Positions 7,303 through 41,956 are shown, numbered from the stretch's first letter. The stretch: DNA of 64,000 bases from an uncultured Candidatus Saccharibacteria bacterium (GCA_964512835.1 CAZELA010000002.1:28603-92602); one strand, 5' to 3'. Numbers and translations: made by a program. The notes: generated by a model not told the origin, from the sequence alone.

Positions 7303-7504
7303 GCAGCATCGCGCAGGCATAACCCGCCTACTTCGTTACGGGTACCAAGCCGCACTCTCGCCGTACTTCTTGTACGGGTCGAGATGCGGCTTTTCCCGTG
7401 CCTCGTATTCGGGTCATTCTGCGCTCGCTGCGACGTTAGTCGGGTAATACAAACGCGCGGCAACTCCAGCGGGTTTTTTGTTTGTTTTATGGTACTGTCT
7501 CGTC

Positions 7505-8083
7505 ATGAAGTTGGAGAATGTCGTCATTATTTCCGGCCCCTCGGGAGCAGGAGAGGATTCCATCATCGGAGGCTTGAGCGCCTTCACCACCATCAACCGT
7601 GTAATCACCACCACAACCCGCGACATGCGTCCGGGCGAGAGCAACGGTGCGCCGTACTATTTCATTTCGAACGAGGATTTTCAGAAGAAGATCGACAGTA
7701 ACGAAATGATCGAATGGGCGCAGCAGTACAACGGCAACTACTACGGCGTGACTAAAGAGGAGCTCGAACGCGTGAACGCGCTGCCGGGTATCGGTACGTG
7801 GAAGATCGAATACCAGGGAGTTATGACGGCACAAAAACTCTTTCCCGAGATACTCTCGATATTTATTATGGCGGACTCGCTTGAGATCCTCGCGGAGCGC
7901 ATTCGCTCACGAGGGAATGTATCGGAGGAATTCATTCAGGAGCGAATGGAATATACGAAAGAGTGGCTCAAGCACACCGACATGTACGACTACACCGTCA
8001 TCAATCACCAGGGGAAGCTCGACGAAGCCATCCGCGAGATTGCCGGTATCCTCAAAAAAGAGGGCTACGCGGTGAATATATGA
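7505..8083 (+). CDS. Guanylate kinase-like protein with a degenerate P-loop (GPSGAGEDS; Glu at the invariant Lys position)
   Basis: Guanylate-kinase fold signatures (TTTTRDMRPGESNGAPYYF, NGNYYGV), but the Walker A lysine is replaced. Start trimmed to the Met after the secY terminator. The stop overlaps the next gene in ATGA. Confidence 0.65.
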   Translation: MKLENVVIISGPSGAGEDSIIGGLSAFTTINRVITTTTRDMRPGESNGAPYYFISNEDFQKKIDSNEMIEWAQQYNGNYYGVTKEELERVNALPGIGTWKIEYQGVMTAQKLFPEILSIFIMADSLEILAERIRSRGNVSEEFIQERMEYTKEWLKHTDMYDYTVINHQGKLDEAIREIAGILKKEGYAVNI

Positions 8084-8664
8084 TCGAGAAAAAGGTGGTT
8101 GTGATCGCGGGCCCGTCCGGCAGCGGAAAGAATACCCTCATTCGCGAGATCAAAGCTCGCCACCCGCATACCGCAACGCTCACCACCGTCACCACGCGTC
8201 CGCCGCGAGCCCATGAGGTCAACGGTGAAGACTACTATTTTTATTCGATCGATGAGTTCGATCGAGAGGTTCAGAAGGGCAACATCAAGGGTGAGCGTTA
8301 CGTACCGCTCTTCGGCGGCGTCCACTACGGCATCTATCTGCCTGATCTCCAAAAGAAATTGCAGACCGCGACTGTCGTGTTCGCGCCGGTGGATATAACC
8401 GGTGCCGAATGGCTCAAGAAGAACTACGACGCGCTTACCATTTTCATTACACCCGAGTCCTTCGAGCAGTATCGAGTTCGTATTCATAACCGCTCGCGCG
8501 ATATGAGCCCCCGTGAGTTCGACATGCGCATGAAAATCGCGCGCGAGGAGCTTGGAGTTCATGCGCAGAAGTACGATTACCGTGTGGTGTCCTTCGACGG
8601 GGGGCTCTCGGAGCTGACCGACCAGGTATTGGAAATAATCACAAAAGAAGGCTACACTCTCTAG
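8080..8664 (+). CDS. gmk: Guanylate kinase
   Basis: Intact P-loop GPSGSGKNT, TTRPPRAHEVNGEDYYF, YGI. It is a paralog of the upstream gene. Confidence 0.75.
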   Translation: MIEKKVVVIAGPSGSGKNTLIREIKARHPHTATLTTVTTRPPRAHEVNGEDYYFYSIDEFDREVQKGNIKGERYVPLFGGVHYGIYLPDLQKKLQTATVVFAPVDITGAEWLKKNYDALTIFITPESFEQYRVRIHNRSRDMSPREFDMRMKIAREELGVHAQKYDYRVVSFDGGLSELTDQVLEIITKEGYTL

Positions 8665-8675
8665 GAAATTCATCT

Positions 8676-9266
8676 ATGGATCCCATTACAGTACTGTTTT
8701 TCGGCTCCCAGGGCGCCGGCAAGGGCACGCAAGTGCAGATGCTCATGGATCACCTGAGCAAGCGTGCAGATCGCGGCATTATCCGCATCGACATGGGCCA
8801 GGAGCTCCGCAATCTCCGCGATACGGGCACGCACACCGGAAAGCTTACGGGAAACATTATCGACAACGGTATCCGCATTTTTGATTTCATGGCTATCTAT
8901 CTGCAGACCAAAAAGGTCGCAGACAGTTTCACCGGGGAAGAACACATCATCGCTGACGGTCTTGCGCGCGGCGCGGATCAGACCCGCGGTTTTGACGACA
9001 TGATGCAGTTCTACGGTCGCGAAAAGCATTTTCAGATCATCAATCTTGTTATTAATGACGACACCGCGGTCACACGACTGCTCGCACGCGGTCGCAACGA
9101 CGATACCGAAGAGGCTATCCGACGACGCCTTGCATGGACGAAGACTGATGTTATGCCGCAGATCGACCTGTTGCGAAGCCGCGGACGCGTCGTGCACGAA
9201 ATTGACGGCGAGCCGGACGTGGATACCATCCACAAGAACATTCTTGCCGCGCTCAAGCTCGCATAA
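8676..9266 (+). CDS. adk: Adenylate kinase (short form, no zinc lid)
   Basis: LFFGSQGAGKGTQVQML P-loop, 196 aa, in the canonical position near secY. Confidence 0.85.
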   Translation: MDPITVLFFGSQGAGKGTQVQMLMDHLSKRADRGIIRIDMGQELRNLRDTGTHTGKLTGNIIDNGIRIFDFMAIYLQTKKVADSFTGEEHIIADGLARGADQTRGFDDMMQFYGREKHFQIINLVINDDTAVTRLLARGRNDDTEEAIRRRLAWTKTDVMPQIDLLRSRGRVVHEIDGEPDVDTIHKNILAALKLA

Positions 9267-11353: not shown

Positions 11354-11433
11354 TGTGCGCGGGATGTGCGTCCGATACACACTCGCACGATTACGAACAA
11401 GAGGGACCTGTCACCGCAAGGTATACTTTTTGT

Positions 11434-14241
11434 ATGGAACCGCGGATTCTCAGCGAGCGTATTACGCCGCGCAACAACACCGAGAAATTCAAATCTGCCG
11501 AAGAAGAGCTTGCATACCTGCGCGAGCAGGTGGCACAAAAAGAACGCGAGCTTTCTGTCCAGCCGGGATCGTTCGAAAAGGACCGTATTGCGAAGCGTGA
11601 GATCGCACAGTACGCCGATATTCCGTCTGCGAAGATCCTGCACGAGACCGTCGTCATGCCCGAGCACGAGACCATGCGACAGATCCTGAAGCTCGAGCCC
11701 GAGGCGCATGACAAGCAGCTCGACGGGCTTATTTCTATCGTAGAGACGCAGGGCGTAAAGAACGCGCTCTCGGTCGCCTCGAGGCTCAAGAATCCGCATC
11801 TGGAAGACGATTTTCATCGCCTCCTGGTGCGGTATGTCGCCGAAGGGTTGCCGGATAGCGGCACGGCAGTCGCAGAAAAAGTGAAGCGTGCACTCCACAT
11901 GGTGCTCTTCGAGGTTCGACCTCAGGCTCATGGCGAGAGCGGGGCAAAGGAATCAGGGCAGCAAAGGCTCGAGCACTTGCTCGCGCCGTCGGAGCAACTC
12001 TACGCAGGACTCCTCACGTTTATAGACGGTACGGAGGGATTTTCGCTCGAGATCGCCGTTCCGCAGGGATCCGAGAGCGCAACGCTCTACCTTGCGGTGC
12101 CGCGCGAAAAACGTACGCTCGCAGAACGGCTCATCACGTCGGTCTTTCCGAACGCGACAATTTCAGAGAGTCGCGGCGACTACAACATATTTGATTACGA
12201 GGGATCGCATGCCGCCTCGTATGCCGTGCTCGCGAAGCACCACGCGTTTCCCGTTAAGACTCCGGATATGTTTGAGCACGATCCCATGAACCTCGTGCTG
12301 GCGGCATTTGCCAAGATTGCGAAGCACGGGGAAGGTGCCGCCATCCAGTTGATCGTGGGATCCGAAGGGGATCGTTACAATCACTACTACAAGAAGGTTG
12401 TCCGCGAGCTCGAGAACGGCAAAGAGATCAACGAAGCGCTCAAGGTGCCGGAGACGGAGATTGGTGAGGCGCTGCGCGATGTGGCAAAACACATCTTCTC
12501 GTCATCGCACGAGACACATCAGTCTGCTCATGCGGTTGATAAGGTGGCAATGGACGAAATATCGCGAAAAATGCAGACCCGTGTTGCGCCTGTCGTGGTG
12601 CGTATCGTCGCATCAGCAAAAGTCCCCGCACGCGCGGATGAAATGCTCGCGAATCTCGAATCGGCGCTGAGCCAATTTGATAATCCGAAGGGAAACCATT
12701 TTGAGTTTGAGCGCGTCTCAAGCTGGGGGTTGAATTCGTTTTTGCATGACTACACTTTCCGCTCGTTCAATGCATCGATCGCGCAGCCGCTCTCGCTCGC
12801 CGAACTCAGTGCCATGTTCCATTTCACCGCTGAACGTGTGACGACGTCGCGCGAGCTGAAAAAGTCGCACGGTAAGCAGGCGCCGGCACCAGTCGATATG
12901 GGTACAGAAGGTATTGTGCTCGGAAAGAACCGCTATGGCGCGGATGAGAGCGAGATTCACTTTGCACCCGCAGATCGCCTGCGTCACTGCTACATAATCG
13001 GTCAGACCGGTACCGGTAAGACAGGCTTCATTACGAACATGATCCTGCAGGATATCCGGAACGGGGAAGGGGTCGCGTTCATTGACCCGCACGGGAGTGA
13101 TATTGAGAACATTCTGTCCGCCATACCGGAGGAACGAAAAAAGGACGTCATTTACTTTGACCCGGCGTATTCTGCGATGCCCATGGGGCTCAATATGCTT
13201 GAGTACGACACTTCGAAGCCCGAGATGAAGTCGTTTGTGATCGACGAGGTGTATGGCGTATTTCGCCAGCTTTACTCCGATGTGCCGGAGGCGTTCGGGC
13301 CGATGTTCGAACAGTACTACCGAAACGCGGTACAGCTCGTCGTCGAGGACCCGGCGACCGGCAGCACATTCGTAGAGATTCCCCGTGTATTCGCCGACAA
13401 AGCGTTCCGGGACCTCAAGATCTCCCGCTGCAACAATCCGATCGTCGTGCAATTTTGGCGGAAGATCGCAGAGGCGGCCGAGGGGGATGCGGGGCTCGAG
13501 AGTATTGCGCCATACATCACGAGTAAATTCGACGCCTTTCTTTCCCACGACATCATGCGACCGATCGTTGCGCAGGAGAAGTCCGCGTTTAACTTCCGCG
13601 AGATCATGGATGGAAAAAAGATATTCCTCGCAAACCTGTCGAAGGGGCGTCTTGGTGATAAGAATGCGGCCCTCCTGGGGCTCGTAATCGTGTCGAAGTT
13701 TTTGCAGGCCGCGTTCTCGCGTGCGGACACCCGCGAGGTGCTTCCGCCGCACTACCTGTACATCGATGAGTTCCAGAATTTCGTCACGCCGTCGATTTCG
13801 ACCATTCTCTCTGAGGCCCGAAAATACAAACTTTCACTTACGGTAGCGCACCAGTTCATGGCGCAGCTCGAAGACGAGATCCGTGATGCGGTCATCGGTA
13901 ACGTCGGTACAAAGATCGCGATGCGTGTCGGAACGACCGATGCGGAATTCCTCGAAAAGCAGTTTTTGCCCGAGTTCACCGCCAAAGATCTCGAGCAGCT
14001 CCCGAACCGTACCGGTGTTGCCGCGATGCTTGTGAACGGGGTGCCGGCAAAGCCATTTACGGTGGAGACCCTGCAATTGCCCGAATTCGATCACTCACAT
14101 CTCGAGGAGATTAAACAACAGTCATACGAGCGGTACGGTGTGCCGCGCGAAGCGGTCGAGGCCGAAATACGTCGCAAGTTCGGGTTCGGCACTCAGTCTG
14201 ACGCCCCGGTGCGGAGCCCTATTTCATCCCTCATGAATTAG
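11434..14241 (+). CDS. P-loop ATPase of the TraG/TraD/VirD4 (type IV coupling protein, FtsK-HerA superfamily) type with a roughly 500-aa uncharacterised N-terminal region
   Basis: Walker A YIIGQTGTGKTGF, Walker B LYIDEFQNF and a downstream AHQ motif lie in the C-terminal half. The N-terminal half has no recognisable motif. Start trimmed to Met28 (MEPRIL), which is preceded by a TATACT -10-like box. Confidence 0.55.
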   Translation: MEPRILSERITPRNNTEKFKSAEEELAYLREQVAQKERELSVQPGSFEKDRIAKREIAQYADIPSAKILHETVVMPEHETMRQILKLEPEAHDKQLDGLISIVETQGVKNALSVASRLKNPHLEDDFHRLLVRYVAEGLPDSGTAVAEKVKRALHMVLFEVRPQAHGESGAKESGQQRLEHLLAPSEQLYAGLLTFIDGTEGFSLEIAVPQGSESATLYLAVPREKRTLAERLITSVFPNATISESRGDYNIFDYEGSHAASYAVLAKHHAFPVKTPDMFEHDPMNLVLAAFAKIAKHGEGAAIQLIVGSEGDRYNHYYKKVVRELENGKEINEALKVPETEIGEALRDVAKHIFSSSHETHQSAHAVDKVAMDEISRKMQTRVAPVVVRIVASAKVPARADEMLANLESALSQFDNPKGNHFEFERVSSWGLNSFLHDYTFRSFNASIAQPLSLAELSAMFHFTAERVTTSRELKKSHGKQAPAPVDMGTEGIVLGKNRYGADESEIHFAPADRLRHCYIIGQTGTGKTGFITNMILQDIRNGEGVAFIDPHGSDIENILSAIPEERKKDVIYFDPAYSAMPMGLNMLEYDTSKPEMKSFVIDEVYGVFRQLYSDVPEAFGPMFEQYYRNAVQLVVEDPATGSTFVEIPRVFADKAFRDLKISRCNNPIVVQFWRKIAEAAEGDAGLESIAPYITSKFDAFLSHDIMRPIVAQEKSAFNFREIMDGKKIFLANLSKGRLGDKNAALLGLVIVSKFLQAAFSRADTREVLPPHYLYIDEFQNFVTPSISTILSEARKYKLSLTVAHQFMAQLEDEIRDAVIGNVGTKIAMRVGTTDAEFLEKQFLPEFTAKDLEQLPNRTGVAAMLVNGVPAKPFTVETLQLPEFDHSHLEEIKQQSYERYGVPREAVEAEIRRKFGFGTQSDAPVRSPISSLMN

Positions 14242-14279
14242 GGACTTTCGCTCGGCGGTGTCGCGGGTATACTGGGCCC

Positions 14280-14666
14280 ATGAAGAAATCCTTGCTCGCA
14301 ATCGTGATCGTGCTCGGTGTACTGGTGCCATCATTCGCATCCGCGGATTCATACGGCGTCGAACCGACGCTCGGCCAGCTACTCACACGCATTGCAGCCT
14401 TACAGGCGTTGATTTCCCATGAAGAGATCAATTGTGCCGTGACGGCGACAAAAAGTGCCGTAAAGGTAGGTGAGGTGTTCACGATCGCGTGGGGTTCCTA
14501 TGGAGCAGATGCGAAGTATTCCAACGATCCGCAGAATGCGTATCCGCAAAACGGTGAACAAACGATGCGCATTACTACGCCCGAGGTCAGAACATATCAT
14601 TTTACGTTCTATGGCCCGAATGGTTTGAAGAAGACCTGCGACCAGACGATATCAGTGTCAGCCTAG
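14280..14666 (+). CDS. Small secreted protein (signal peptide, conserved LLxxIxxLQAL motif)
   Basis: Signal peptide MKKSLLAIVIVLGVLVPSFASA, then TLGQLLTRIAALQALI, which resembles the N-terminal module of the two large surface proteins at 40736 and 41957. Confidence 0.5.
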   Translation: MKKSLLAIVIVLGVLVPSFASADSYGVEPTLGQLLTRIAALQALISHEEINCAVTATKSAVKVGEVFTIAWGSYGADAKYSNDPQNAYPQNGEQTMRITTPEVRTYHFTFYGPNGLKKTCDQTISVSA

Positions 14667-17678: not shown

Positions 17679-17701
17679 ACTGGTGGTATACTGACTCAAC
17701 A

Positions 17702-18388
17702 ATGATTAAGAAGCGTTTAATGCACCCGAATCACACCGCGGTGCCGCAGAACTTCTGCAGGCTTCCCGATGGGTACGGTGTCGTGAAGATCGGCGTCTCC
17801 GGCGCCGCAGACACGACCTACGCCGGACTCGACGCATTTGAAAAGGCAAAAGAGATCGGCCGCGAAATCGCGCGTCACGGCGCCATCATTACAACCGGTG
17901 CAACAACCGGCTTTCCGCTGTATGCAGCCATGGGAGCAAAAGACGAATGCGGTTTTTCTATAGGATTTTCTCCTGCTGCTACCGAGCGTGAACACGTAGA
18001 GACCTACCAGCTGCCGCTCGATTTCATGGATGTGGTTATGTACACCGGATTCGGGTATTCGGGCCGCGACCTCCTCTTTGTGAGGTCTTCTGACGCAATG
18101 GTCATCGGTCCGGGCCGAATCGGCACTATCAATGAGTTTGCCGTAGCGTTCGAAGATCACCGCCCGATCGGGGTACTTCGCAGCCAGTCCGATACGGATG
18201 AGTTGCTCGAGCTCATCATTGATGCTGCACATCGACCCAATACGAACATAGTATTTGAAACCGACCCGAAAGCGCTCGTTGAGCAGCTCATCGAAAAGGT
18301 CATGAAGATGAAAGAGGGGACCAACCTGGTATTCAACAACCACGACGGATGGTCTGCGACCGGCAAGAACGCCGACGTGATCCTGTAG
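17702..18388 (+). CDS. LOG/TIGR00725-like Rossmann-fold nucleotide-binding protein
   Basis: PGRIGTINEF motif (compare the LOG PGGxGTxxE motif) and a Rossmann-like glycine-rich N-terminus. Confidence 0.5.
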   Translation: MIKKRLMHPNHTAVPQNFCRLPDGYGVVKIGVSGAADTTYAGLDAFEKAKEIGREIARHGAIITTGATTGFPLYAAMGAKDECGFSIGFSPAATEREHVETYQLPLDFMDVVMYTGFGYSGRDLLFVRSSDAMVIGPGRIGTINEFAVAFEDHRPIGVLRSQSDTDELLELIIDAAHRPNTNIVFETDPKALVEQLIEKVMKMKEGTNLVFNNHDGWSATGKNADVIL

Positions 18389-19664: not shown

Positions 19665-21134
19665 TTAGCGGAGTGCTTTTGTTGTTGTCGCGGTAGAGGT
19701 TGCCGTCTGAACGGTCGCCTTTGATCCGCCGAAAACTCGAATACTGAGCTTTTGCACGAGGGTGAGCAATGTATCGCGCAGCTTTGTCATCAATGTAATA
19801 AGCGTCTTCTGCATCGTTGCGAGGACGGACGATGATGTCGATGACGAGACGGTTGCTTTAGCCTGGTTCTGCTCTCCGAACGTCGCGGTCACATGGATGG
19901 GATCTATCTCGACCGACGTCGATGCGATGGGGCGCTCCTCGTCGTAGATGGTCTCTTTTACGTTCGATCCTTTTGTCGGGTCGTCCGGTGTTTCCGGTTC
20001 GGTGGATTGCGTTTGAGTCGGCGTCGAGGTCGATGTTTGGGTCGATGTTGTGTACCACTCAAATTCTTTTGTCATTAACTGGATCTGTTGCAGGTCAGAA
20101 ATTTGTTTCGTCGCCGTTGCGCTCGTGCTCGACGGTAGGTTGTACGTGTACGGTGCGGGGACTTCAAACGTCGTCGTCGCGGTCGGCCATGTGTAGACGG
20201 GGATATCCGGATAGGTTGGAGTCGTGGGATACGTAGGAGTCGTCGGGGTATTCGATTGGTTGAGCAGCGCAGCAGCCAAGGGAGAGAATTGGGCCGCTGT
20301 CGACATCATCGATGGATTCCACGTGCTCGGAGCAAACGCGCCGGTATTTGAATACGGGATACTCGACTGGTCGCCGGTCCATCCGGTTTGCGGCAAGGGC
20401 TGTTGTTTACCGTTTACCGCGCCTGCCGGTTCGATATGCCACGGCTCGTACTCCATCGGATAGCGTAGGTTGAACTGCGCAAAATTTGTATGGGCCCAGT
20501 TACATGCCGGGATAGTGGACATGCATGACGCTGTGTTCGTCGGGCCGCGCTGCCCGCTAAAGCTCAGGTCGACTGCAAGACCGAAATTATGCTTAGAGCT
20601 GCCCGGTGGTGCGACCGGCGCGCCGCACTTACCGCACGCGATGTATTTATCGTACAGCTGTTTTTGTAGCTCAACGGAACGATAGCCGGAGGCGATCGTG
20701 ATATTTTGTCCGGCCGCATCTGCTGCCTTCAAAAATTTAGAGAGACGGCATGCAAAGTCAGAATTCAATCCGCTGACGGTATCGGGCCTTCCGGTCTTAT
20801 CTTTCGTCTGCAGATACGGGTAGGGATTCGTTTCGCAGCCGCCGTACAGCAGTGCCTTGTCCTTGTCGCAAAACATACCGCTCGACGGAATCAGAGCGCC
20901 CATAGCGAGAAGTCCGGTACGCTCCTCGGGGGTGATCTCGTGGCATCCGGCGAAGATCGCGCTCGCAGTCGGTTCGGCGCTCGCGACTCCGTGAATGCAC
21001 AGGATTCCTACGGCAAACATCGCGATGAGGAGTTTCGCACCTTTGTGCACATGCATGCGGGAAGTATACCGAGTGATTTGCATTCGCGCTTCGCCCGGTG
21101 GGGAGATTAGCGGTCGCTGTGACAGGCTCCCCAC
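19665..21134 (-). CDS. Secreted peptidase M15 (VanY / D-Ala-D-Ala carboxypeptidase-like) with a Thr/Pro-rich low-complexity linker
   Basis: Signal peptide, zinc-binding SSKHNFGLAVDL and EPWHIEP motifs. Low-complexity TPTTPTYPTTPTYP and STQTSTSTPTQTQST stretches. Confidence 0.65.
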   Translation of the reverse strand: MGSLSQRPLISPPGEARMQITRYTSRMHVHKGAKLLIAMFAVGILCIHGVASAEPTASAIFAGCHEITPEERTGLLAMGALIPSSGMFCDKDKALLYGGCETNPYPYLQTKDKTGRPDTVSGLNSDFACRLSKFLKAADAAGQNITIASGYRSVELQKQLYDKYIACGKCGAPVAPPGSSKHNFGLAVDLSFSGQRGPTNTASCMSTIPACNWAHTNFAQFNLRYPMEYEPWHIEPAGAVNGKQQPLPQTGWTGDQSSIPYSNTGAFAPSTWNPSMMSTAAQFSPLAAALLNQSNTPTTPTYPTTPTYPDIPVYTWPTATTTFEVPAPYTYNLPSSTSATATKQISDLQQIQLMTKEFEWYTTSTQTSTSTPTQTQSTEPETPDDPTKGSNVKETIYDEERPIASTSVEIDPIHVTATFGEQNQAKATVSSSTSSSVLATMQKTLITLMTKLRDTLLTLVQKLSIRVFGGSKATVQTATSTATTTKALR

Positions 21135-21707: not shown

Positions 21708-21721
21708 AATATACTTCTGTT

Positions 21722-22300
21722 ATGGAAGACTTCTCACAGTACCGGGATGAAATGGCAAAGTTCTACCGTGCCAACAAGCGGATGCCGTCATTCTCTGAAC
21801 TGATGAAGCTCTGGGACTACAAGACCAAGAGCGCGGTCAACTACAAGCTCGAACAGATGATCGATGCGGGGCTCGTGCGCAAGGACAAGAGCGGCCGCCT
21901 CATTCCGCACAAAATGGAAGACGATGCAGGACTTCCGCTCCTTGGCCTCGTCGAAGCGGGATTTCCGTCGCCGGCCGAAGAAGAGCTGCTCGATGTGCTT
22001 TCGTTCGACGAATATCTCACACCGAACAAAGAATCGAGCTACATCCTGAAGGTAAAAGGGGATTCCATGATTGATGCCGGTATCCGCGAAGGCGACATGG
22101 TCATTGTGGAGCGTCGCTCGTCGTACAAGGTGGGGCAGATTGTCATCGCATCGGTCGACGGCGAGTACACCATGAAGTATCTGCGCAAGAGCGGCGACAA
22201 ACATTATCTGGAGCCGGCGAACGAACGATACAAACCCATCTATCCGAAAGAATCCTTTCGGATCGAGGCGGTCGTTACAGCAGTCGTGCGGAAATATTAA
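21722..22300 (+). CDS. lexA: LexA repressor (S24 peptidase)
   Basis: N-terminal winged-helix region. C-terminal GDSM...KYLRK Ser/Lys dyad context. Confidence 0.85.
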   Translation: MEDFSQYRDEMAKFYRANKRMPSFSELMKLWDYKTKSAVNYKLEQMIDAGLVRKDKSGRLIPHKMEDDAGLPLLGLVEAGFPSPAEEELLDVLSFDEYLTPNKESSYILKVKGDSMIDAGIREGDMVIVERRSSYKVGQIVIASVDGEYTMKYLRKSGDKHYLEPANERYKPIYPKESFRIEAVVTAVVRKY

Positions 22301-22607
22301 TTCACTTCAAACCACAGCACCGTATGAAAAAAATAGATAACTGGCTCTCCATTCAGCGATACGTCGCGCAGGCCTCGCAGATCGTATCCGTTCCCACCAT
22401 GACCAACGTCGAGGTGTGGGGCAAAGTCCGCTCGAAACACGAAACCAGAAAGAACAGACGCTTCCTCGTTCCTCGCATTACAACCATTTAAAAGTTACCA
22501 CCATAAAAACATCCTATGAGAATCTCAATCACACTTACTCCGAAGTTCGCAACGTTTATCCGTCGCCTCTTCCGCGCACATCTCTACGTTCCGACGCGCT
22601 ACGAGGT

Positions 22608-23237
22608 ATGGAACGTGTAGCGAGCCTGAGCAGTAGGGCATTCGCTATCGTCGATGTTGAAACTACGGGTACCGGCCTCAATGATCGCGTCATCGAGATC
22701 GGAATCCTTCGCATCGAGAACGGTGTCTGTGTCGAAACGTTCAAAACTTTTTTAGATCCCGAACAGCCGATTTCTTCGTGGATCACCCGCCTCACCGGCA
22801 TTACAGACTCCGATGTGGAGAGTGCGCCGAGTTTTCTCGATGTGGCAGACCGTGTGGCGCGTTTGCTGCGGGGCGCGATCTTTGTGGCACACAACGCGGC
22901 ATTCGATTACGCGTTCATTAGACAGGAGTTTGCGCGCATCGACCGATTTTTCGAGGCGCGGTGTCTGTGCACCGTGAAGCTCTCGCGCTTGCTCTCTCCG
23001 CGGGCAAAGCGCCACAACCTGTCTGCAGTGATACGTCGACACAAGCTTTCGTGCGAATCGCGTCATCGAGCGTTTGATGATGCGCACGCACTCTGGCAGT
23101 TCATACAGTGGGGTGAGCGGCGGAAGGCGAGAACGCTCGCACATGCTATTGAACGACTTTTACACACCGACCGTACGCAGGAGCGCGTGCACGCACGCCG
23201 ACCTGAGTACTCCGAAGGCGAACAGGTTATTCGATAA
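22608..23237 (+). CDS. DEDDh 3'-5' exonuclease (DnaQ/epsilon-like)
   Basis: Exo I FAIVDVETTG, Exo II AHNAAFDYAF, Exo III H..D. Start trimmed to the Met of MERVASL. Confidence 0.75.
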   Translation: MERVASLSSRAFAIVDVETTGTGLNDRVIEIGILRIENGVCVETFKTFLDPEQPISSWITRLTGITDSDVESAPSFLDVADRVARLLRGAIFVAHNAAFDYAFIRQEFARIDRFFEARCLCTVKLSRLLSPRAKRHNLSAVIRRHKLSCESRHRAFDDAHALWQFIQWGERRKARTLAHAIERLLHTDRTQERVHARRPEYSEGEQVIR

Positions 23238-23249
23238 CACTATGAATCT

Positions 23250-24575
23250 ATGGCATGGGGATCATCCGGTTCGTTTCCGCGCGCAATACTCCACATCGAC
23301 GGGGATTCATTTTTTGCGGCATGCGAAGTGGCGAAGAACCCCAGCCTCCGCGGTAAGCCGGTCATAACAGGCAAAGAGCGAGGCATCGTATCCGCCGCGA
23401 CCTACGAAGCCAAGGCGCGCGGCGTAAAGCGCGGTGTACCGCTGCACGAAGCACTCAAGGCATGCCCCGATGCGATCATCCTGCCGTCGGATTACGAGAC
23501 GTACAGCCTGTTCTCGAATCGCATGTACGAGATCGTGCGCAGGTACACACCAGCAGTCGAGGAATATTCGATCGACGAATGTTTTGCCGATCTGACCGGA
23601 CTGCGCCGTACACTCCGTATGCCGTATCCGAAGATCGCCTTGAAGCTGCAGGAAGAACTTGAGAGTGAGCTCGGGCTCTCGTTCTCGATCGGGGTTGCAC
23701 CCACGAAGGTGCTCGCCAAGGTGGGTTCCAAGTGGAAGAAGCCGCACGGACTCACCATGATTCCGCTCTACGATGTGCATACATTCCTCGCGAAGACGCC
23801 GACTATCGGTGTGTGGGGCATCGGTCCGAACACCGCTGCGTACCTGCAGAAGTTCGGTATCCGCACTGCACTGGATTTTGTGAACCGTGACGAAGCAGAA
23901 GTTCGCGACATGGTTACAAAACCCATCTACGAGATCTGGAGAGAGCTCAAGGGTGAAGTGGTATACGAACTCGACACCGAAGGCCGCGGGTCGTACCAGT
24001 CGATCAGCAAGACCAAAACATTCACGCCACCCTCGAGCGATCCGCGATTCGTTGCGGCGCAACTCTCAAAGAATGTCGAGAATGCGTGCATCAAGGCGCG
24101 CCGCTGGGGTCTCGCCACACCGGAGATATTCTTTTTCCTCAAAACACAGGAATTCAAATACCACGGATGCGAGATCAAGCTCTCGCATCCGACCTGTATC
24201 CCGAACGACATTCTTTCGGCGGTCCGCACCCAATTTCTTCGGGTGTTCAAGAGAGGGACGCAGTACCGCGCTACAGGGATCGTGCTTATGAAATTGCAGG
24301 ACGCGAACAAGACGCAACTCGACCTGTTCGGCTCCGTGCTCAAGACCGAGGCCGCAAAATCGGTATACGAAAGTCTGGATGAGATTGCTGCCAAGTACGG
24401 CAAGCACGCGATATTCCTCGGATCGAGCTTCCATGCAATGAAGCCGCAGATGAGCAAGGTAGCGAACCATTCGCCGATAGCCCGCGAAGAAAAGCCTGCG
24501 CGTCACCGCGAACTGTTCAAGGGAGAAACCGCACGCAGACGACTGGGCGTCGCGTCGCTCGGCGAGGTGAACTAA
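23250..24575 (+). CDS. dinB: DNA polymerase IV (Y-family translesion polymerase)
   Basis: ILHIDGDSFFAACE, SIDECFADLT and a little-finger domain. 441 aa. Confidence 0.9.
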   Translation: MAWGSSGSFPRAILHIDGDSFFAACEVAKNPSLRGKPVITGKERGIVSAATYEAKARGVKRGVPLHEALKACPDAIILPSDYETYSLFSNRMYEIVRRYTPAVEEYSIDECFADLTGLRRTLRMPYPKIALKLQEELESELGLSFSIGVAPTKVLAKVGSKWKKPHGLTMIPLYDVHTFLAKTPTIGVWGIGPNTAAYLQKFGIRTALDFVNRDEAEVRDMVTKPIYEIWRELKGEVVYELDTEGRGSYQSISKTKTFTPPSSDPRFVAAQLSKNVENACIKARRWGLATPEIFFFLKTQEFKYHGCEIKLSHPTCIPNDILSAVRTQFLRVFKRGTQYRATGIVLMKLQDANKTQLDLFGSVLKTEAAKSVYESLDEIAAKYGKHAIFLGSSFHAMKPQMSKVANHSPIAREEKPARHRELFKGETARRRLGVASLGEVN

Positions 24576-27414: not shown

Positions 27415-28635
27415 ATGATCCTTCTCTCGCTTATTTCCTACGTCCTCGTACAGACGCTGGGGTTATTCATCGCATTCGCGGCAGCTGCGGTGCTTTTGTA
27501 TATGATTCTGCGGCGGTTTCATTCTCGAGCTATCACACTTACGTTGTGTGCGGTGTTCATCGGTATATCAATATTCTTTTACGTACCGAACGGTTTACCC
27601 AGCGGCTTTGAGTACGCCGCGTATCGCGCTACGTACGGACCCGCCGGAAAACCGTCCCTCCCATTCTGGAATGTCATCGCTTTCTTCCGGCACTTCAATG
27701 CATTTGAGCGTGTAGCTGATATCGCACACGACCCGAATCAGGTCGGAGAGCCGATCGCGCGGACCGCGACCAGCACCGTGCATGTCGACATTGTGGCAAA
27801 AGAAGTCATCTCTGAACTCGCGCCGGGTGTGTATCAGAATTTTTGGACCTACAACGGCACGGTGCCCGGCCCGATGGTGCGTGTGCGCGTAGGTGACACC
27901 GTCGTTGTAACGCTGAAGAACGATGAGTCGAGCCTCCACCCGCACACCATAGATTTCCACGCGGTCATCGGACCCGGAGGGGGAGCGGCGGTGCTGCTTG
28001 CGAATCCGGGCGAGACGAAAACGCTCACGTTCACCGCACTGCATCCGGGGCTGTTCGTATACCACTGCGCAGCGCAGAATCCTGCGGTGCACATGGCGCA
28101 TGGCCAGTACGGATTGATCCTTGTCGAACCGGAGACACCGTTGCCGCCGGTCGATCACGAGTACTACGTGATGCAGGGTGAGTTCTACACCACCGGAACG
28201 CTCGGCCAAAAAGGACTGCAAATATTCGATTCAAAAGCGATGCTCGACGGTATTCCGAATTACGTTGTGTTCAACGGCAGAACCGGCGCACTCGCCAAGA
28301 GTCTCAATGCGAAGTCAGGCGAAACCGTGCGCTTCTACGTGGGTAACGGCGGAGTAAATCTGATCTCGTCGTTCCACATCATCGGGACCGTGTTCGATCG
28401 CGTGTGGCAGGAAGGCTCGATCACAAGTCCGCCCGTCACCAACGTGCAAACAACACTCGTTCCGGCAGGTGGTTCAACAGTGGTTGACCTGACGCTGCGG
28501 GTACCGGGGAATTTTGTCCTCGTTGATCACGCGCTCGCGCGCGTAGACAAAGGTGCGTGGGGCGTGCTGCACGTCACCGGCGATCCTGAGCCCGGAGTAT
28601 TCCAGGGCCAAGCGCAGGAGATGAAAGGACACTAG
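27415..28635 (+). CDS. nirK: Copper-containing nitrite reductase (NirK, two-domain multicopper oxidase) with an N-terminal membrane anchor
   Basis: Two N-terminal transmembrane helices. Type 1 and type 2 copper-ligand motifs HTIDFHAV...GGG, LHPGLFVYHCA, HMAHGQYGLILVEP. Confidence 0.8.
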   Translation: MILLSLISYVLVQTLGLFIAFAAAAVLLYMILRRFHSRAITLTLCAVFIGISIFFYVPNGLPSGFEYAAYRATYGPAGKPSLPFWNVIAFFRHFNAFERVADIAHDPNQVGEPIARTATSTVHVDIVAKEVISELAPGVYQNFWTYNGTVPGPMVRVRVGDTVVVTLKNDESSLHPHTIDFHAVIGPGGGAAVLLANPGETKTLTFTALHPGLFVYHCAAQNPAVHMAHGQYGLILVEPETPLPPVDHEYYVMQGEFYTTGTLGQKGLQIFDSKAMLDGIPNYVVFNGRTGALAKSLNAKSGETVRFYVGNGGVNLISSFHIIGTVFDRVWQEGSITSPPVTNVQTTLVPAGGSTVVDLTLRVPGNFVLVDHALARVDKGAWGVLHVTGDPEPGVFQGQAQEMKGH

Positions 28636-30493: not shown

Positions 30494-30597
30494 CCGCATA
30501 CTATATAGTACGGAGGTCCAAAAAGACCACTTGGGGGCGTGTGAGCCCGAGGTCATATTTCTTTCATAAAGGGCTCGTTACTGTATACTCTCCCGAT

Positions 30598-32511
30598 ATG
30601 GCAAACCCCGAAAAGAATAAAAAACAGAAAGAAAAAGCCCCCGAAGGGCCGAATCTGTTCACGCAACTCGCGGTCGCGTTCGCGGTATTTCTTGTTATCA
30701 CGATCGGCTATTCATTCGCGCGTCAGTACGTGCTGAAGCCCGATGTAAACGTGCCGCTTTCACAGATCGCGGCTGACATCACGAACGGTTCCGTAAAGTC
30801 GCTTGTGGTGCAGGGCGACAAGATCATAGCGACCTACGGCGACGAATCCGTAAAGAACTCGCGCAAAGAGGCCGAAGCATCGCTCGTAGAAACCCTTGCC
30901 GCATACAGCATTCCGGCGGAGGCGCTCGCTGCGGTAAAGATCGATATTCAGGATGAGAGCGGTTTCCGTTTCTGGTTCCTCACGCTCGCGCCGATTCTTG
31001 TACCCGCACTGCTCTTGTTCGGTGTCATTTGGTATCTCTCGAGACAGCTGAAGGGGGGAGGTATGCAGGCGTTCTCGTTCGGACGCTCGATGGCGCGACT
31101 CATGCGTCCGGAAGACGCGCAGAAGGTCACGTTCGCCGATGTCGCGGGCGCCAAGGAAGCAAAAGTAGAACTGACCGAGATCGTCGACTTTTTGAAAAAT
31201 CCTAAGAAATTTATCCAGATCGGCGCACGCATCCCGAAGGGAGTACTGCTTATGGGTTCTCCGGGTACGGGCAAAACATTACTCGCGCGCGCAGTTGCGG
31301 GTGAAGCAGGCGTGCCGTTCTTCTCGATATCCGGTTCTGAATTTGTGGAAATGTTCGTGGGTGTGGGAGCCTCACGTGTGCGCGATCTGTTCCAGACTGC
31401 AAAGAAATCCGCACCGGCGATTATTTTCATGGACGAGATCGACGCGGTTGGCCGCGTTCGCGGGTCCGGTGTCGGCGGGGGAAACGACGAGCGCGAACAG
31501 ACACTCAACCAGATCCTCGTGGAAATGGACGGCTTCGAGCCGAATGAGTCGGTGATCGTAATGGCAGCCACCAACCGACCCGATGTACTCGACCCCGCGC
31601 TCTTGCGACCGGGACGATTCGATCGTCGTGTCACGATCGATCCGCCGGATCGCAAAGACCGCGAAGACATTCTTACAATCCACGCACGCAAGAAGCCGCT
31701 CGGACCGGATGTAAAGATCGCCGTGATCGCGGAGCGCACGCCCGGTTTCTCGGGTGCGGACCTCGCAAATCTCATGAACGAAGCAGCGATCCTCGCCGCA
31801 CGCGAAGATCGCAAAGAGATTACGCAGTACGACCTCATTCGTTCGATCGAAAAAGTCATGCTCGGTCCCGAACGACGCTCGCATGTGCTCAATAAAATGG
31901 AGAAGGAAATTACCGCGTACCACGAAGCGGGACACGCGCTCGTCGCTTCCGTTTTGCCGTATGCGGATCCGGTGCACAAGATCTCGATCATCAGTCGCGG
32001 TCGCGCTGCCGGCTACACGCTCAAGCTCCCGCTTGAAGAGCGCAAAATGCAGTCACGAAAAGAGTTCCTCGACGATATCGCGGTCAGCCTCGGCGGCTTC
32101 GTTGCCGAGAAGCTCGTATACGACGACGTGACGACCGGCGCATCGAACGACCTGCAGGTACTCACGAATCTTGCGCGCAACATGGTCGCTCGGTGGGGTA
32201 TGTCGGAAAAGATGGGCCCCATCGCATTTGCGGCTTCCGCACAGCGCGCACTGTTCGGTGAAGGGGTTGATAGCGAAGTCTCCGAAGAGGTTGCATCGCA
32301 CATCGACGAAGAAGTGAAAAAGATCATCACCGGTGCGCATCATGTCGCGACCGACGTAATCACCAAACACCGCAAGGTACTCGACGCAATCGCAAAGCGC
32401 CTCATGGAGGTCGAGACGATCGAACGCGAAGAATTCGAGCAGATGCTCGTGCTGCACGGCATTGCTCCGAAGAAAAAGGAAGACCTGGAGCTCGTAGGGC
32501 TCGCACAATAA
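30598..32511 (+). CDS. ftsH: ATP-dependent zinc metalloprotease FtsH
   Basis: N-terminal transmembrane pair, AAA Walker [12 protein letters not shown] region, HEAGH zinc motif. Confidence 0.95.
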
Positions 32512-35440: not shown

Positions 35441-36616
35441 TTGGTATACTTCGCAGCCATGGCCACACCCAACAAGAACAAGCTTACTAAGCAGGCATTA
35501 GCACTCCACAAAAAGATCGGCGGCAAGATCCGCATTGTCCCCGCTGTGCCCGTTCGTAATCGCGCCGACCTTTCGCTCGTGTATACGCCCGGCGTCGGTT
35601 ACGTATCAAGTCACGTGGCAAAGAATCCGAAAAGTGCCCGCGAGCTCACGATGAAGGGTCGCATGATCGCGGTCGTCTCCGACGGATCTGCAGTACTTGG
35701 CTTAGGAAATATCGGCGCACTTGGTGCGCTCCCGGTCATGGAGGGCAAGGCGGCACTCTTTAAGACATTCGCTGATGTTGATGCGGTGCCGATCGTGCTC
35801 GATACGCAAGATGCCGATGAGATCGTGGAGACGGTCATCCGCATTGCTCCGGGGTTTGGTGGTATCAATCTCGAAGACATCGCGGCGCCGAAATGTTTCG
35901 AGATCGAACAGCGACTCATCGAGGCGCTTGATATCCCGGTCATGCACGACGATCAGCACGGTACGGCGATTGTGGTACTTGCCGGCCTTATTAATGCGAT
36001 GAAGGTCGTCAAAAAAGATATTCAGAAATCACGCATCGTCGTTGCGGGTGTAGGGGCCGCCGGCGTGGCGACCATGCGACTCATCAAAAAATACGCGCCC
36101 AAGGCCGTGATATTCGCGGTGGATAGCCAGGGAATTGTGGGGCACAGTCGCATCGATCTCAATGCGACGAAGGCGGCACTTCTTTCCGACGGCATCATCG
36201 ACGGCTCGCTCGAAGGGTCTCTCGGGGTTGCGCTCACGGGGAGCGATGCGTTTCTTGGTGTTTCGCAGCCCGGCGTTATTACCGCCGAGATGATCAAGAC
36301 TATGCGCAAAGACGCAATCGTATTTGCTATGGCGAATCCGACTCCGGAGATCATGCCCGACGAAGCCAAGAAGGGCGGGGCGGCGGTCATTGCGACCGGG
36401 CGCTCGGATTTCCCGAATCAGATCAACAACTCGCTCGCATTCCCGGGAGTCTTTCGCGGGGCGCTCGACAACAAGGTGCGCAAAATAACCGACGACATGA
36501 AAATAAAGGCGGCCAAAGCAATCGCGGCATTCGTAAAGAAACCGACGGCAACCAAGATTGTTCCCGACATGTTCGACAAGGCCGTACCGAAGGCGGTGGC
36601 GAAATCCATCAAATAA
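35441..36616 (+). CDS. NAD(P)-dependent malic enzyme (short form)
   Basis: LSLVYTPGVGYVS, AVVSDGSAVLGLGNIG, GINLEDI, VVAGVGAAG. Confidence 0.85.
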   Translation: MVYFAAMATPNKNKLTKQALALHKKIGGKIRIVPAVPVRNRADLSLVYTPGVGYVSSHVAKNPKSARELTMKGRMIAVVSDGSAVLGLGNIGALGALPVMEGKAALFKTFADVDAVPIVLDTQDADEIVETVIRIAPGFGGINLEDIAAPKCFEIEQRLIEALDIPVMHDDQHGTAIVVLAGLINAMKVVKKDIQKSRIVVAGVGAAGVATMRLIKKYAPKAVIFAVDSQGIVGHSRIDLNATKAALLSDGIIDGSLEGSLGVALTGSDAFLGVSQPGVITAEMIKTMRKDAIVFAMANPTPEIMPDEAKKGGAAVIATGRSDFPNQINNSLAFPGVFRGALDNKVRKITDDMKIKAAKAIAAFVKKPTATKIVPDMFDKAVPKAVAKSIK

Positions 36617-38994: not shown

Positions 38995-39068
38995 CCGCCC
39001 TTAGCTCAGTTGGTTAGAGCATCGAGCTTATACCTCGAGGGTCCTTGGTTCGAGTCCAAGAGGGCGGA
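38995..39068 (+). tRNA. tRNA-Ile with anticodon UAU, no encoded CCA
   Basis: Cloverleaf by eye. Acceptor CCGCCCT/AGGGCGG, D-arm GCTCAGTTGGTTAGAGC, anticodon loop CTTATAC, T-arm CTTGGTTCGAGTCCAAG. Confidence 0.65.
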
Positions 39069-39106
39069 CATAAAATTGTTCCAATTTTCTGTCCGCCCTC
39101 TTGGAC
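39054..39106. repeat. Perfect 17-bp inverted repeat (extended hairpin) that includes the tRNA-Ile T-stem and acceptor 3' strand
   Basis: gtccaagagggcggaca ... tgtccgccctcttggac separated by a 19-nt loop that is itself palindromic (aaaattg..caatttt). Confidence 0.7.
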
Positions 39107-40208: not shown

Positions 40209-40688
40209 ATGGCCCACATCCACGACAAGATCGATTTCTGCGTCGAGGTGTTCATTGTGAACAACGGGCGTGTTTTGTTGCGCATGCACGACAAGCACAA
40301 GATCTGGCTCTCCGTCGGCGGTCACGTTGAGCTCGACGAAGACTTCAATCAGGCGGCTATCCGGGAGGTCAAAGAAGAAGTGGGTCTCGATATTACGCTC
40401 TGGGACTCCCGTAAATGGCCAGAGAATTCCGACGAACACTACAAAGAACTGATCCCGCCGCTCTCAATGGGCAGGCATCCGTCGGCAACTGCCGAGAAAC
40501 CCGCACACGAACACGTCGTGGCTGTCTATGTAGGGATTGCAGAGAGTGATGCGGTCACCATTCAGTACGAAGGGGACCGAAGCGACGAGTGGCGGTGGTT
40601 CACACGCGAAGAGCTCGACTCTGTCGATCTACGCACGAACGTCCGGAATTACGCGATCTTCGCGCTCGAGACGCTCGGGCACGCCTAG
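40209..40688 (+). CDS. NUDIX hydrolase
   Basis: Nudix box GGHVELDEDFNQAAIREVKEEVGL. Confidence 0.8.
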   Translation: MAHIHDKIDFCVEVFIVNNGRVLLRMHDKHKIWLSVGGHVELDEDFNQAAIREVKEEVGLDITLWDSRKWPENSDEHYKELIPPLSMGRHPSATAEKPAHEHVVAVYVGIAESDAVTIQYEGDRSDEWRWFTREELDSVDLRTNVRNYAIFALETLGHA

Positions 40689-40735
40689 TGTGGATTCCCG
40701 GATTTCCTTCGCGTGGGCCGTGCGACAATGAGTCC

Positions 40736-41848
40736 ATGAAATTCGGCGTCCGCGTCATTATCGCGTCGATACTCCTTGCGCCGGTGTTCGCGAGTGCGCA
40801 GTCGACGAGCGACCTCACGTCTCAGGCAGAAACGCTTTTGAAACAGATACAACAGCTCCAGGCGCAGCTTGGCGGCGGTAGTGCAACGGGCGGAGTGGCC
40901 GGTGCGTGTTATAGCGGCGGTCCGCTCAAGCCGGGTGCAAGCGGTGCGTCCGTATCCGCATTGCAACAATTTCTCGCAGCAGATCCCTCGGTGTATCCCG
41001 AGGCAAAAGTGACCGGCTACTATGGCGCACTCACACAAAAGGCCGTGCAGCGCTTTCAGGTAAAGAACGACATCGTTACATCCGGAACTCCGTCAACCAC
41101 CGGCTACGGGTCTGTCGGGCCGCGTACCGTTGCGGTCATGGCGGCAGCCTGCGGGGGAGCGTCCGACTCATCGGGGGATCCCGTCGTCGGCGGATTCATT
41201 AAAGTGTCACCCGTCGAAGGAAGCGCCCCGCTTACGGTGAATGTGGAGGTGACGATCAATACCGTCAAATCATGCCTGCCCGCTACGTACTCGCTCTCGT
41301 GGGGAGATAATTCACTCCCGTTCACCATCTCGGTACCGGCCGGCAAGTGCGATGTTGTCGCACAAACGTACACGCATCTCTACACGCTCGGAGGTGAATA
41401 CAACGTCACGCTCTCCTCGGGTCAGCATCAAACGACTTCAAAGGTTACCGTTTCGGGTAACGGATCGATCATGACCTCGGGCACGATGGACACGAATTTT
41501 GCGGGCGGTAGTGCGTCCACAGGGGGATCGACGACAGGAGGATCGTCTACGGGCGGTTCGTCCACCGGCGGACAGGTTGTCTCGGGCGCACTCGCTATTT
41601 CAATGAGCAGTAACTCTTTCTCGCCCGGCAACATAACGGTTACGAGCGGTACGCGGGTTACCTGGACTAATACCGACTCGATGCCGCACACCGTGACCGC
41701 AGACAACGGCAGCTATAACAGCGGGGCAATGTCTCCGGGACAGACGTATGCCCTCACGTTCACGGCAAAGGGCGAATACACCTATTATTGTGCGATCCAC
41801 GGTGCAAAAGGCGGTATCGGCATGTCCGGCAAAATTACCGTTCAGTAA
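40736..41848 (+). CDS. Secreted protein with an N-terminal peptidoglycan-binding (PG_binding_1-like) domain and a C-terminal type-1 copper cupredoxin (plastocyanin/azurin-like) domain
   Basis: Signal peptide MKFGVRVIIASILLAPVFASA. PG-binding region LKPGASGASVSALQQFLAAD...GYYGALTQKAVQRFQ. C-terminal copper ligands MPHTV ... YYCAIHGAKGGIGM. Confidence 0.65.
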   Translation: MKFGVRVIIASILLAPVFASAQSTSDLTSQAETLLKQIQQLQAQLGGGSATGGVAGACYSGGPLKPGASGASVSALQQFLAADPSVYPEAKVTGYYGALTQKAVQRFQVKNDIVTSGTPSTTGYGSVGPRTVAVMAAACGGASDSSGDPVVGGFIKVSPVEGSAPLTVNVEVTINTVKSCLPATYSLSWGDNSLPFTISVPAGKCDVVAQTYTHLYTLGGEYNVTLSSGQHQTTSKVTVSGNGSIMTSGTMDTNFAGGSASTGGSTTGGSSTGGSSTGGQVVSGALAISMSSNSFSPGNITVTSGTRVTWTNTDSMPHTVTADNGSYNSGAMSPGQTYALTFTAKGEYTYYCAIHGAKGGIGMSGKITVQ

Positions 41849-41956
41849 AACGTCTTCGTGAAGGGCGCTGTGCTATCCCCATCGACGAAATGGGTGTTTC
41901 AAGTCGCCCGTGCGACGATGAACGTATATTTATTCGAATCAGGAAGCTTTTTATCT

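Follow-up and report, generated by a model that had tools for sequence, protein, structure and literature searches.

What does an ATPase resembling the coupling proteins of type IV secretion do when it is encoded among housekeeping genes, and what are the nearly 500 residues that precede its motor? The question is raised by one gene in a stretch of 64,000 nucleotides (nt) from an uncultured Candidatus Saccharibacteria bacterium (GCA_964512835.1, CAZELA010000002.1:28603-92602). We refer to the whole stretch as the window, and coordinates are counted from its first letter. The gene encodes a protein of 935 amino acids (aa), which is itself already present in public collections under the name 'hypothetical protein'. 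We found that this ATPase is a vertically inherited, chromosomal, housekeeping-type member of the VirD4/TraG branch of the FtsK-HerA ATPases, in which an N-terminal helical module and a domain of the Pfam family DUF8128 precede the motor (Table 1).

The start codon was assigned to the ATG at 11434, which is equivalent to the start used by homologues. The listing of open reading frames (ORFs) and the translation confirmed the coupling-protein-like ORF of the original prediction, with its Walker A, Walker B and AHQ motifs. Walker A is conserved without exception in 56 close homologues and almost without exception in 109 diverse ones, and the residues D778 and E779 of Walker B and A805, H806 and Q807 of the AHQ motif are invariant among the 56 close homologues. 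The VirD4/TraG/TraD type that had been proposed for the C-terminal half was also borne out. Pfam TraG-D_C matched aa 774-841 with 31.8 bits (cut-off 22, E 1.5e-7), and TrwB_AAD_bind matched aa 512-556 marginally, with 20.6 bits vs a cut-off of 20.5. Using hhalign, a profile of the motor aligned with the single TrwB sequence at a probability of 96.5% (E 9.5e-10) over 267 columns, which span the region between Walker A and Walker B; with a profile of the VirB4 C-terminal domain the probability was 90% (E 1.6e-6). When the family profile was compared with PDB sequences, the best matches were two coupling proteins with the same P-loop motor family, TrwB of R388 (1e9r) first at 3.7e-8 and DotL (6sz9) next, and then HerA; VirB4 was not among the matches. 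As judged from its sequence, the motor is an intact one of the coupling-protein type, closer to TrwB than to VirB4.

None of the narrower families in NCBIfam claimed the protein. SXT_TraD reached E 2.4e-14, far under its cut-off, and the TraD, TrbC and CD1115 equivalogs stayed below their curated cut-offs (52.7 vs 366, 36 vs 647, 30 vs 800 and 37.3 vs 250 bits). The matches to the TraD, TrbC, VirB4, CedD and HerA models were weak, 10- to 20-fold under the cut-offs, with TIGR00929 (VirB4) at 23.2 bits vs 643. HerA, FtsK, CedB, CedD and the mad8 protein of the MADS system belong to the same superfamily, but their weak matches were limited to the P-loop and Walker B regions with all scores far under the family cut-offs, and the window ATPase lacks a HAS-barrel, the alpha and gamma domains of FtsK and a multi-helix membrane domain. 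Unlike canonical coupling proteins, the ATPase has no N-terminal transmembrane domain, as had been predicted. A hydropathy scan revealed no transmembrane helix at all, the highest 19-residue Kyte-Doolittle mean being 1.47 at aa 744, within the ATPase core. Ahead of its motor, the window protein has about 330 aa of DUF8128 and a fused 150-aa partner module.

We then asked what the N-terminal half is. Searching a word index of 5.8 billion proteins, we obtained more than 800 homologues of the ATPase; the best 120 of these, which were the matches examined, are all about 930 aa long, full length and 67-99% identical. The N-terminal 500 residues had been described as matching nothing recognisable, and this turned out to be incorrect: they comprise a catalogued family, DUF8128, and a fused partner module that is discussed below. 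PF26449 (DUF8128) is present in the precomputed Pfam annotation of P0001, a protein 99% identical to the window protein, in that of most of the 120 listed homologues, and in that of distant membrane-anchored relatives. Our Pfam scan (E up to 1, with a copy that apparently did not include DUF8128), our NCBIfam scan and a sequence search of the PDB with the whole protein returned nothing for this half.

The predicted structure suggests what kind of domain DUF8128 is. The AlphaFold model of the full-length protein had a predicted local distance difference test (pLDDT) score of 62 overall and was good for aa 150-470. When this model was used as a query, thirteen full-length TrwK chains headed the Foldseek matches (E 7e-9 to 1.6e-6, about 490-770 columns), with alignments of 700-770 columns at E 7e-9. 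The structures that consist of an ATPase domain only fared far worse, with 1.5e-4 for DotL, about 3e-3 for HerA and Cag-beta, and 1e-2 for 4ag6, the VirB4 C-terminal domain. A second model covered aa 85-495 and was built from a 109-sequence alignment across both subfamilies of the family; it had a pLDDT of 84.5 and a predicted template-modelling score of 0.77. In a Foldseek search of the PDB, the top 14 matches to this model were all TrwK, the VirB4 of R388 (E 2e-6 to 5e-4, probability 1.00), with about 400 aligned columns. The next matches had E values above 1e-2, and none of them was a RecA-like ATPase. Because the top matches are all TrwK and a RecA-like ATPase does not appear, DUF8128 is predicted to resemble the N-terminal domain of VirB4 and not a second ATPase domain. 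TrwK (7o43, 8rtd), the sole significant structural match, has the same layout of a large alpha/beta N-domain and a RecA-like motor, and the soluble protein in the window likewise has no membrane helix of its own. Common descent of DUF8128 and the VirB4 N-terminal domain, to judge from these models, is plausible but unproven.

The domain and the motor go together: in every full-length member examined, near or distant, DUF8128 preceded the same VirD4/HerA-like ATPase. With aa 1-480 alone as a query against 1.84 billion cluster representatives, we obtained 745 clusters (50% identity) at E of 1e-3 or lower. Neither this number nor that of the homologues above can be put down to chance. Where a source is named, the best 120 homologues come from Candidatus Kaiserbacteria, Paceibacterota or Parcubacteria and carry the label 'TraM recognition domain-containing protein', which places the window in a Patescibacteria (Candidate Phyla Radiation) genome. 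We also scanned the GTDB species-representative genomes. The best 80 loci all come from Patescibacteria metagenome-assembled genomes, a few of which bear odd submitter labels such as Bdellovibrionales or Bacillota. Within the sampled loci, the DUF8128 ATPase family is thus confined to Patescibacteria.

In the more remote members, the alignment to the query is limited to aa 150-470, approximately, and the protein starts with one hydrophobic helix. A search with one of them, P0261, uncovered a sister family with a very large membership; its proteins are about 780-840 aa long, and almost all have PF26449. Their sources are Portnoy-, Moran-, Staskawicz- and Vogelbacteria, Paceibacterota and others, and they are labelled either 'DUF87 domain-containing protein' or 'type IV secretory system conjugative DNA transfer family protein'. 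Their identity to the window protein is 25-30% in DUF8128 and about 50% in the motor. Of 30 complete membrane-anchored genes, 28 encode the N-terminal membrane helix, and basic residues follow it in the examples inspected. The fused genes, as we call those of the window type, form the other class; all 52 carry the helical module in-frame, and all 52 are without an N-terminal helix.

Some members of the family depart from these two forms. In L057 (5770-6702 and 6777-8645) and in L007 (5767-7587 and 7823-8557) the fused-type gene is split into two ORFs, which could reflect a frameshift, a pseudogene or an assembly error. P0164, a protein of 690 aa from the search of cluster representatives, has a Peptidase_M16_C domain at aa 208-362 followed by a DUF8128 match at aa 380-689, and represents either another kind of fusion or a gene call that is truncated or chimeric. 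In L036, a Nomurabacteria locus, a 496-aa coupling-protein-like ATPase without DUF8128 (582-2072), 32% identical to the motor, is encoded 3.7 kb upstream of the fused-type gene; a second ATPase of this kind fits the published figure of about two VirD4-like genes per Patescibacteria genome.

The sister family also explained the first 150 residues. This module has no Pfam family and no solved-structure sequence match in our Pfam and PDB searches. In two sister-family loci, however, the gene directly upstream of the ATPase gene encodes a soluble helical protein of 133 or 144 aa, the C-terminal part of which (QLxILVxxAxxxGIxxAV...PYLxDEFHDxL) aligns with aa 23-143, approximately, of the window protein. 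BLASTP with aa 1-150 gave E 1e-6 for the protein encoded at 9564-9998 in L005 and E 1e-7 for that at 9466-9867 in L004. A small ORF of 125-156 aa lies immediately upstream of 22 membrane-anchored genes, and a profile of these 22 small proteins aligned by hhalign with a profile of the 52 fused extensions at a probability of 97.8% (E 7e-13, 114 columns). These alignments show that aa 1-150 correspond to a partner module which is fused to the ATPase here and is encoded by a separate small upstream gene in other Patescibacteria. The occurrence of fused and separate forms is a classic fusion signal, suggesting joint action of the ATPase and the small protein. DUF5663 proteins of about 103 aa (8444-8755 and 9033-9347 in L004) recur just upstream of the partner/ATPase pair; they form a cluster of 9 loci, six membrane-anchored and three fused, and may be further components of the set.

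The surroundings of the gene are those of a housekeeping gene. In the window, adk, map and purD lie upstream of the ATPase gene and ndk lies downstream. The gene order in close relatives is S8-L6-L18-S5-L15-secY-gmk-adk-map-purD-X-small ORF-ndk-...-beta-CASP nuclease, where X is the ATPase gene. The neighbours that recur in the 52 fused-type loci are ndk (22 loci, at a median of 49 nt downstream, and at 20-70 nt in several), adk, map, secY and the beta-CASP nuclease, and this synteny is kept across about 50 of these loci. Thus, the fused form has a fixed position just downstream of the ribosomal-protein/secY array. The membrane-anchored form shares DUF8128 and the motor and is likewise chromosomal and unlinked to VirB4, but it differs in its single N-terminal helix, in its separate upstream partner gene and in its neighbours, which are the glycosylation genes PMT_2 and GtrA, RmuC, DUF5663 proteins and ribosomal protein L21.

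No secretion genes were found nearby, which again sets the window gene apart from those of known coupling proteins. We scanned the window ORFs of at least 100 aa, together with the ORFs within 6-10 kb at 85 related loci, with hidden Markov models (HMMs) and phmmer for VirB4, TrsE and TrsK, and obtained only weak matches to the DUF8128 ATPases themselves. The earlier observation that there is no VirB4 nearby was thereby confirmed for the window. VirB3, VirB6 and VirB8 homologues, beside which VirB4 would be expected to stand, did not adjoin the ATPase gene in any of the neighbourhoods examined. The large window ORFs that were scanned encode housekeeping or envelope proteins.

It had also been suggested that the ATPase is paired with the small secreted protein encoded directly downstream, and this did not hold. 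The product of the small ORF has an N-terminal signal-peptide-like segment, MKKSLLAIVIVLGVLVPSFASA, and matched nothing in Pfam, NCBIfam or PADLOC. Two cysteines are invariant among its homologues, which have 63% and 35% identity and were present only in the three closest loci, L001/L002 and L003; none of the 49 other fused-type loci has one, and ndk or another gene directly follows the ATPase gene there. The ORF is also preceded by its own -10-like motif, a second copy of the GGTATACT motif found before the ATPase gene, which points to a transcription start separate from that of the ATPase gene. With homologues limited to the closest relatives and a promoter-like motif of its own, the ORF is a chance neighbour inserted in this lineage and not a conserved partner of the ATPase. 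Synteny ruled out the partnership.

What, then, could the ATPase do? At a probability of about 45% for the reading as a whole, we propose that it is a hexameric, membrane-proximal translocase that serves the lineage's chromosomal, non-conjugative type IV secretion apparatus. By analogy with TrwB/VirD4 and VirB4, the protein would assemble into a hexameric ring on the cytoplasmic side of the membrane, and ATP hydrolysis would drive the threading of a polymer. DNA or a nucleoprotein is the most probable polymer, an unfolded protein a less probable one. DUF8128 would be a docking platform for membrane partners, as the N-terminal domain of VirB4 is for VirB3 and VirB8. In the sister form, the single N-terminal membrane helix would act as a tether, an arrangement (membrane helix, N-domain, motor) that mirrors the natural fusions of VirB3 with VirB4. 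The fused lineage would have lost the helix and gained the partner module, giving a peripheral protein that must be recruited in the way VirB4 is. As for the channel, a type IV secretion apparatus encoded elsewhere in the genome is slightly the most likely one, with an unrelated channel nearly as likely.

What has been published on Patescibacteria is consistent with such an arrangement. VirB4 is present in 2,417 of 3,035 genomes, and 5,713 VirD4-like homologues were found in 2,918 of them, only 148 near virB4 (PMC12102498). VirD4-like genes are thus almost universal but scattered (PMC12102498, PMC10633639). Relaxases are nearly absent (109 across the 3,035 genomes), and exaptation has been raised by the authors (PMC12102498). 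A type IV secretion system is essential in the sole Patescibacteria species tested (PMC12102498, PMC10633639), and the secretion cluster of that species, Ca. Southlakia epibionticum, is without a recognisable coupling protein (PMC10633639).

Several results weigh against the proposal of a secretion translocase. The TrwK match to the DUF8128 model has a template-modelling score of only 0.36-0.41 and a root-mean-square deviation of about 8 A, and VirB4 and DUF8128 show no similarity in N-domain sequence. In hhalign, the DUF8128 profile reached 0.1% with a VirB4 N-terminal-domain profile (11 sequences, R388 TrwK and ten diverse plasmid VirB4), 0.2% with TrsD of pGO1 and 0.1% with the VirB4 C-terminal-domain profile, and an HMM of the VirB4 N-terminal domain did not match DUF8128 either. 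The link to VirB4 is thus one of predicted structure only. In the motor, pLDDT was below 50 over much of aa 597-877, so that the ring, the pore and an all-alpha insertion are putative; the segment between the two Walker motifs, where such an insertion would be sited, has predicted helices over aa 596-715, with pLDDT below 50 there too. VirB4 was found at none of the 85 loci, so that the ATPase is connected with a secretion apparatus by family resemblance only, and the literature searched makes no mention of DUF8128. Finally, the coupling-protein homologue of Ca. Southlakia epibionticum, which may or may not carry DUF8128, is reported to be non-essential although the secretion system is essential (PMC12102498).

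The same absence of VirB4 from the 85 loci would be expected of a DNA pump that works with no type IV secretion apparatus, either as an uptake motor behind ComEC and the type IV pilus or as an FtsK-like segregation translocase. We regard this as the strongest competitor, only a little less likely than service to the secretion apparatus. In the uptake version, DNA would feed nucleotide salvage and transformation. The housekeeping array contains nucleotide kinases (gmk, adk, ndk) and nucleases (beta-CASP, SNase), RmuC, RecJ and DnaX occur near the sister-form genes, and the window also contains type IV pilus genes; the kinases, however, may simply follow from the gene order that is conserved downstream of the ribosomal operon. 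The sequences are very strongly conserved, and there are weak NCBIfam matches to CedD and CedB, the archaeal DNA-import ATPases. The sister form, with its anchor, linker domain and motor, recalls the layout of FtsK, but the Pfam scan revealed neither a gamma domain of the FtsK type nor a DNA-binding domain. Coupling-protein homologues are present in more Patescibacteria genomes than VirB4 is (2,918 and 2,417; PMC12102498), an excess that could also come from incomplete assemblies together with about two copies per genome. Also against the pump, deletion of comEC in Ca. Southlakia epibionticum abolishes competence but not viability (review PMC12857230). A bolder scheme, which we consider improbable, holds that the DUF8128 ATPases are a third ancient branch beside VirB4 and VirD4, an evolutionary intermediate with a VirB4-type N-domain on a coupling-protein motor; they would then be a secretion-independent core machine, for example for nucleic-acid import into these nucleotide-auxotrophic cells, with the small helical protein as an obligate partner.

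Two other functions suggested by the motor can be given very little weight. For an anti-phage defence ATPase, mad8-like (MADS) or HerA-like and possibly acting with the downstream secreted protein, there is a PADLOC match to mad8 (E 5.4e-17 over aa 493-861), along with weak matches to HerA and DndH. These matches are limited to the generic ATPase domain, and the locus contains no other mad genes and no methyltransferase or nuclease partner, nor does any defence gene stand among the neighbours identified. Unlike patchy mobile defence islands, the gene keeps the same housekeeping position in about 50 loci at 67-99% identity, and the secreted ORF is not conserved alongside it. We therefore rejected the defence role that the original prediction had considered, since the mad8 match is to the ATPase domain alone and the array is housekeeping and vertically conserved. 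Still more remote is a coupling protein of an integrated conjugative element, remnant or working, that transfers a plasmid or the element. The motor type and the source names ('TraM recognition', 'type IV secretory system conjugative DNA transfer') speak for it. Yet the neighbours identified are housekeeping genes with no mobile-element gene among them (no search was aimed at relaxases or integrases), the same genes flank the ATPase gene in dozens of genomes, and its guanine-plus-cytosine content equals that of the genome (0.559 vs 0.560 for the window). The near absence of relaxases from Patescibacteria (PMC12102498) and the low scores of the NCBIfam TraD, TrbC and VirB4 models also stand against an element.

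Patescibacteria are ultra-small bacteria, tiny epibionts that account for a large share of bacterial diversity. The sequences, DUF8128 as a Pfam family, and the scattered VirD4-like genes of these bacteria were already public. In the literature searched we did not find a description of the architecture in three modules, the resemblance of the DUF8128 fold to VirB4, the partner as a split or a fused protein, or the fixed position of the fused form. For one major group of VirD4-like genes, our results thus add a fixed design of partner, VirB4-like and VirD4-like parts, in an anchored form and in a fused soluble form, and a setting in housekeeping operons. The design predicts that the small helical protein binds the ATPase and that DUF8128 acts as a docking domain. 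Whether the family co-occurs with VirB4 would separate a role in secretion from that of an independent DNA pump, and if the similarity in fold reflects common descent, it bears on the divergence of VirB4 and the coupling proteins.

Table 1. Positions of the ATPase gene, its parts and the associated features in the window
Feature	Position (nt)	Strand	Evidence or remark
Open frame, 962 codons	11353-14241	+	ORF listing
Complete gene, 935-aa DUF8128 + VirD4-like ATPase, soluble fused form, stop codon included	11434-14241	+	ORF listing, translation
N-terminal helical extension, aa 1-150	11434-11883	+	BLASTP, hhalign to separate small protein
DUF8128 (PF26449) alpha/beta domain, aa ~151-480	11884-12873	+	Pfam on homologues, AlphaFold/Foldseek
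FtsK-HerA-superfamily P-loop motor, VirD4/TraG coupling-protein type, aa 481-935	12874-14238	+	Pfam, hhalign
Walker A GQTGTGKT, aa 523-530	13000-13023	+	Translation
Walker B region YLYIDEFQNF, aa 774-783	13753-13782	+	Translation
AHQ sensor-like motif, aa 805-807	13846-13854	+	Translation
128-aa secreted protein, signal peptide, two conserved cysteines	14280-14666	+	ORF, signal-like segment
-10-like motif GGTATACT before ATPase gene	11420-11427	+	Ends 6 nt before ATG
Second GGTATACT motif, before small ORF	14266-14273	+	Ends 6 nt before ATG
(GG)TATACT + ATG sites	11422-11436, 14268-14282, 17687-17704, 21710-21724, 30584-30600, 35445-35461; 21054-21068 (-)		Pattern scan

The motif that precedes both the ATPase gene and the small ORF is not restricted to this locus. 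GGTATACT occurs 5 times in the window vs 0.58 expected, and the looser pattern TATACT-N(4-9)-ATG occurs 7 times vs 0.81 expected, each ATG being at or near the start of an ORF. The excess suggests that TATACT is a candidate -10 box for leaderless or near-leaderless mRNAs. The sites imply start codons at about 21056 (-), 30598 and 35459 that differ from those of the longest ORFs.

Other parts of the window yielded further observations. Between secY and adk there are two adjacent guanylate-kinase-like ORFs (7478-8083 and 7963-8664), and the duplication is also seen in L001. The type IV pilus genes lie 44 kb away from the ATPase gene and encode PilM (58047-59189, E 1.6e-34) and a PilB-type T2SSE ATPase with an MshEN domain (60873-62570, E 8e-117). 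A tRNA-Ile gene at 38995-39069 has the anticodon TAT, which is unusual in bacteria; in most of them AUA is read by a CAT tRNA that carries the lysidine modification. Patescibacteria are generally described as lacking a respiratory chain, and respiratory-type copper proteins are unexpected in them; the window encodes a heme-copper oxidase subunit I (COX1, 51404-53371, E 3e-142), a multicopper oxidase (27415-28635) and a cupredoxin protein with a peptidoglycan-binding domain (40589-41848). A 1485-aa protein with three peptidoglycan-binding and four PKD domains (41858-46315) is probably a large surface or adhesion protein. At 21722-24575 lies an SOS-like trio of genes: one is S24/LexA-like, an assignment based on synteny with L001, and the others encode an exonuclease of the RNase_T family (22416-23237) and a DinB/IMS translesion polymerase (23250-24575).

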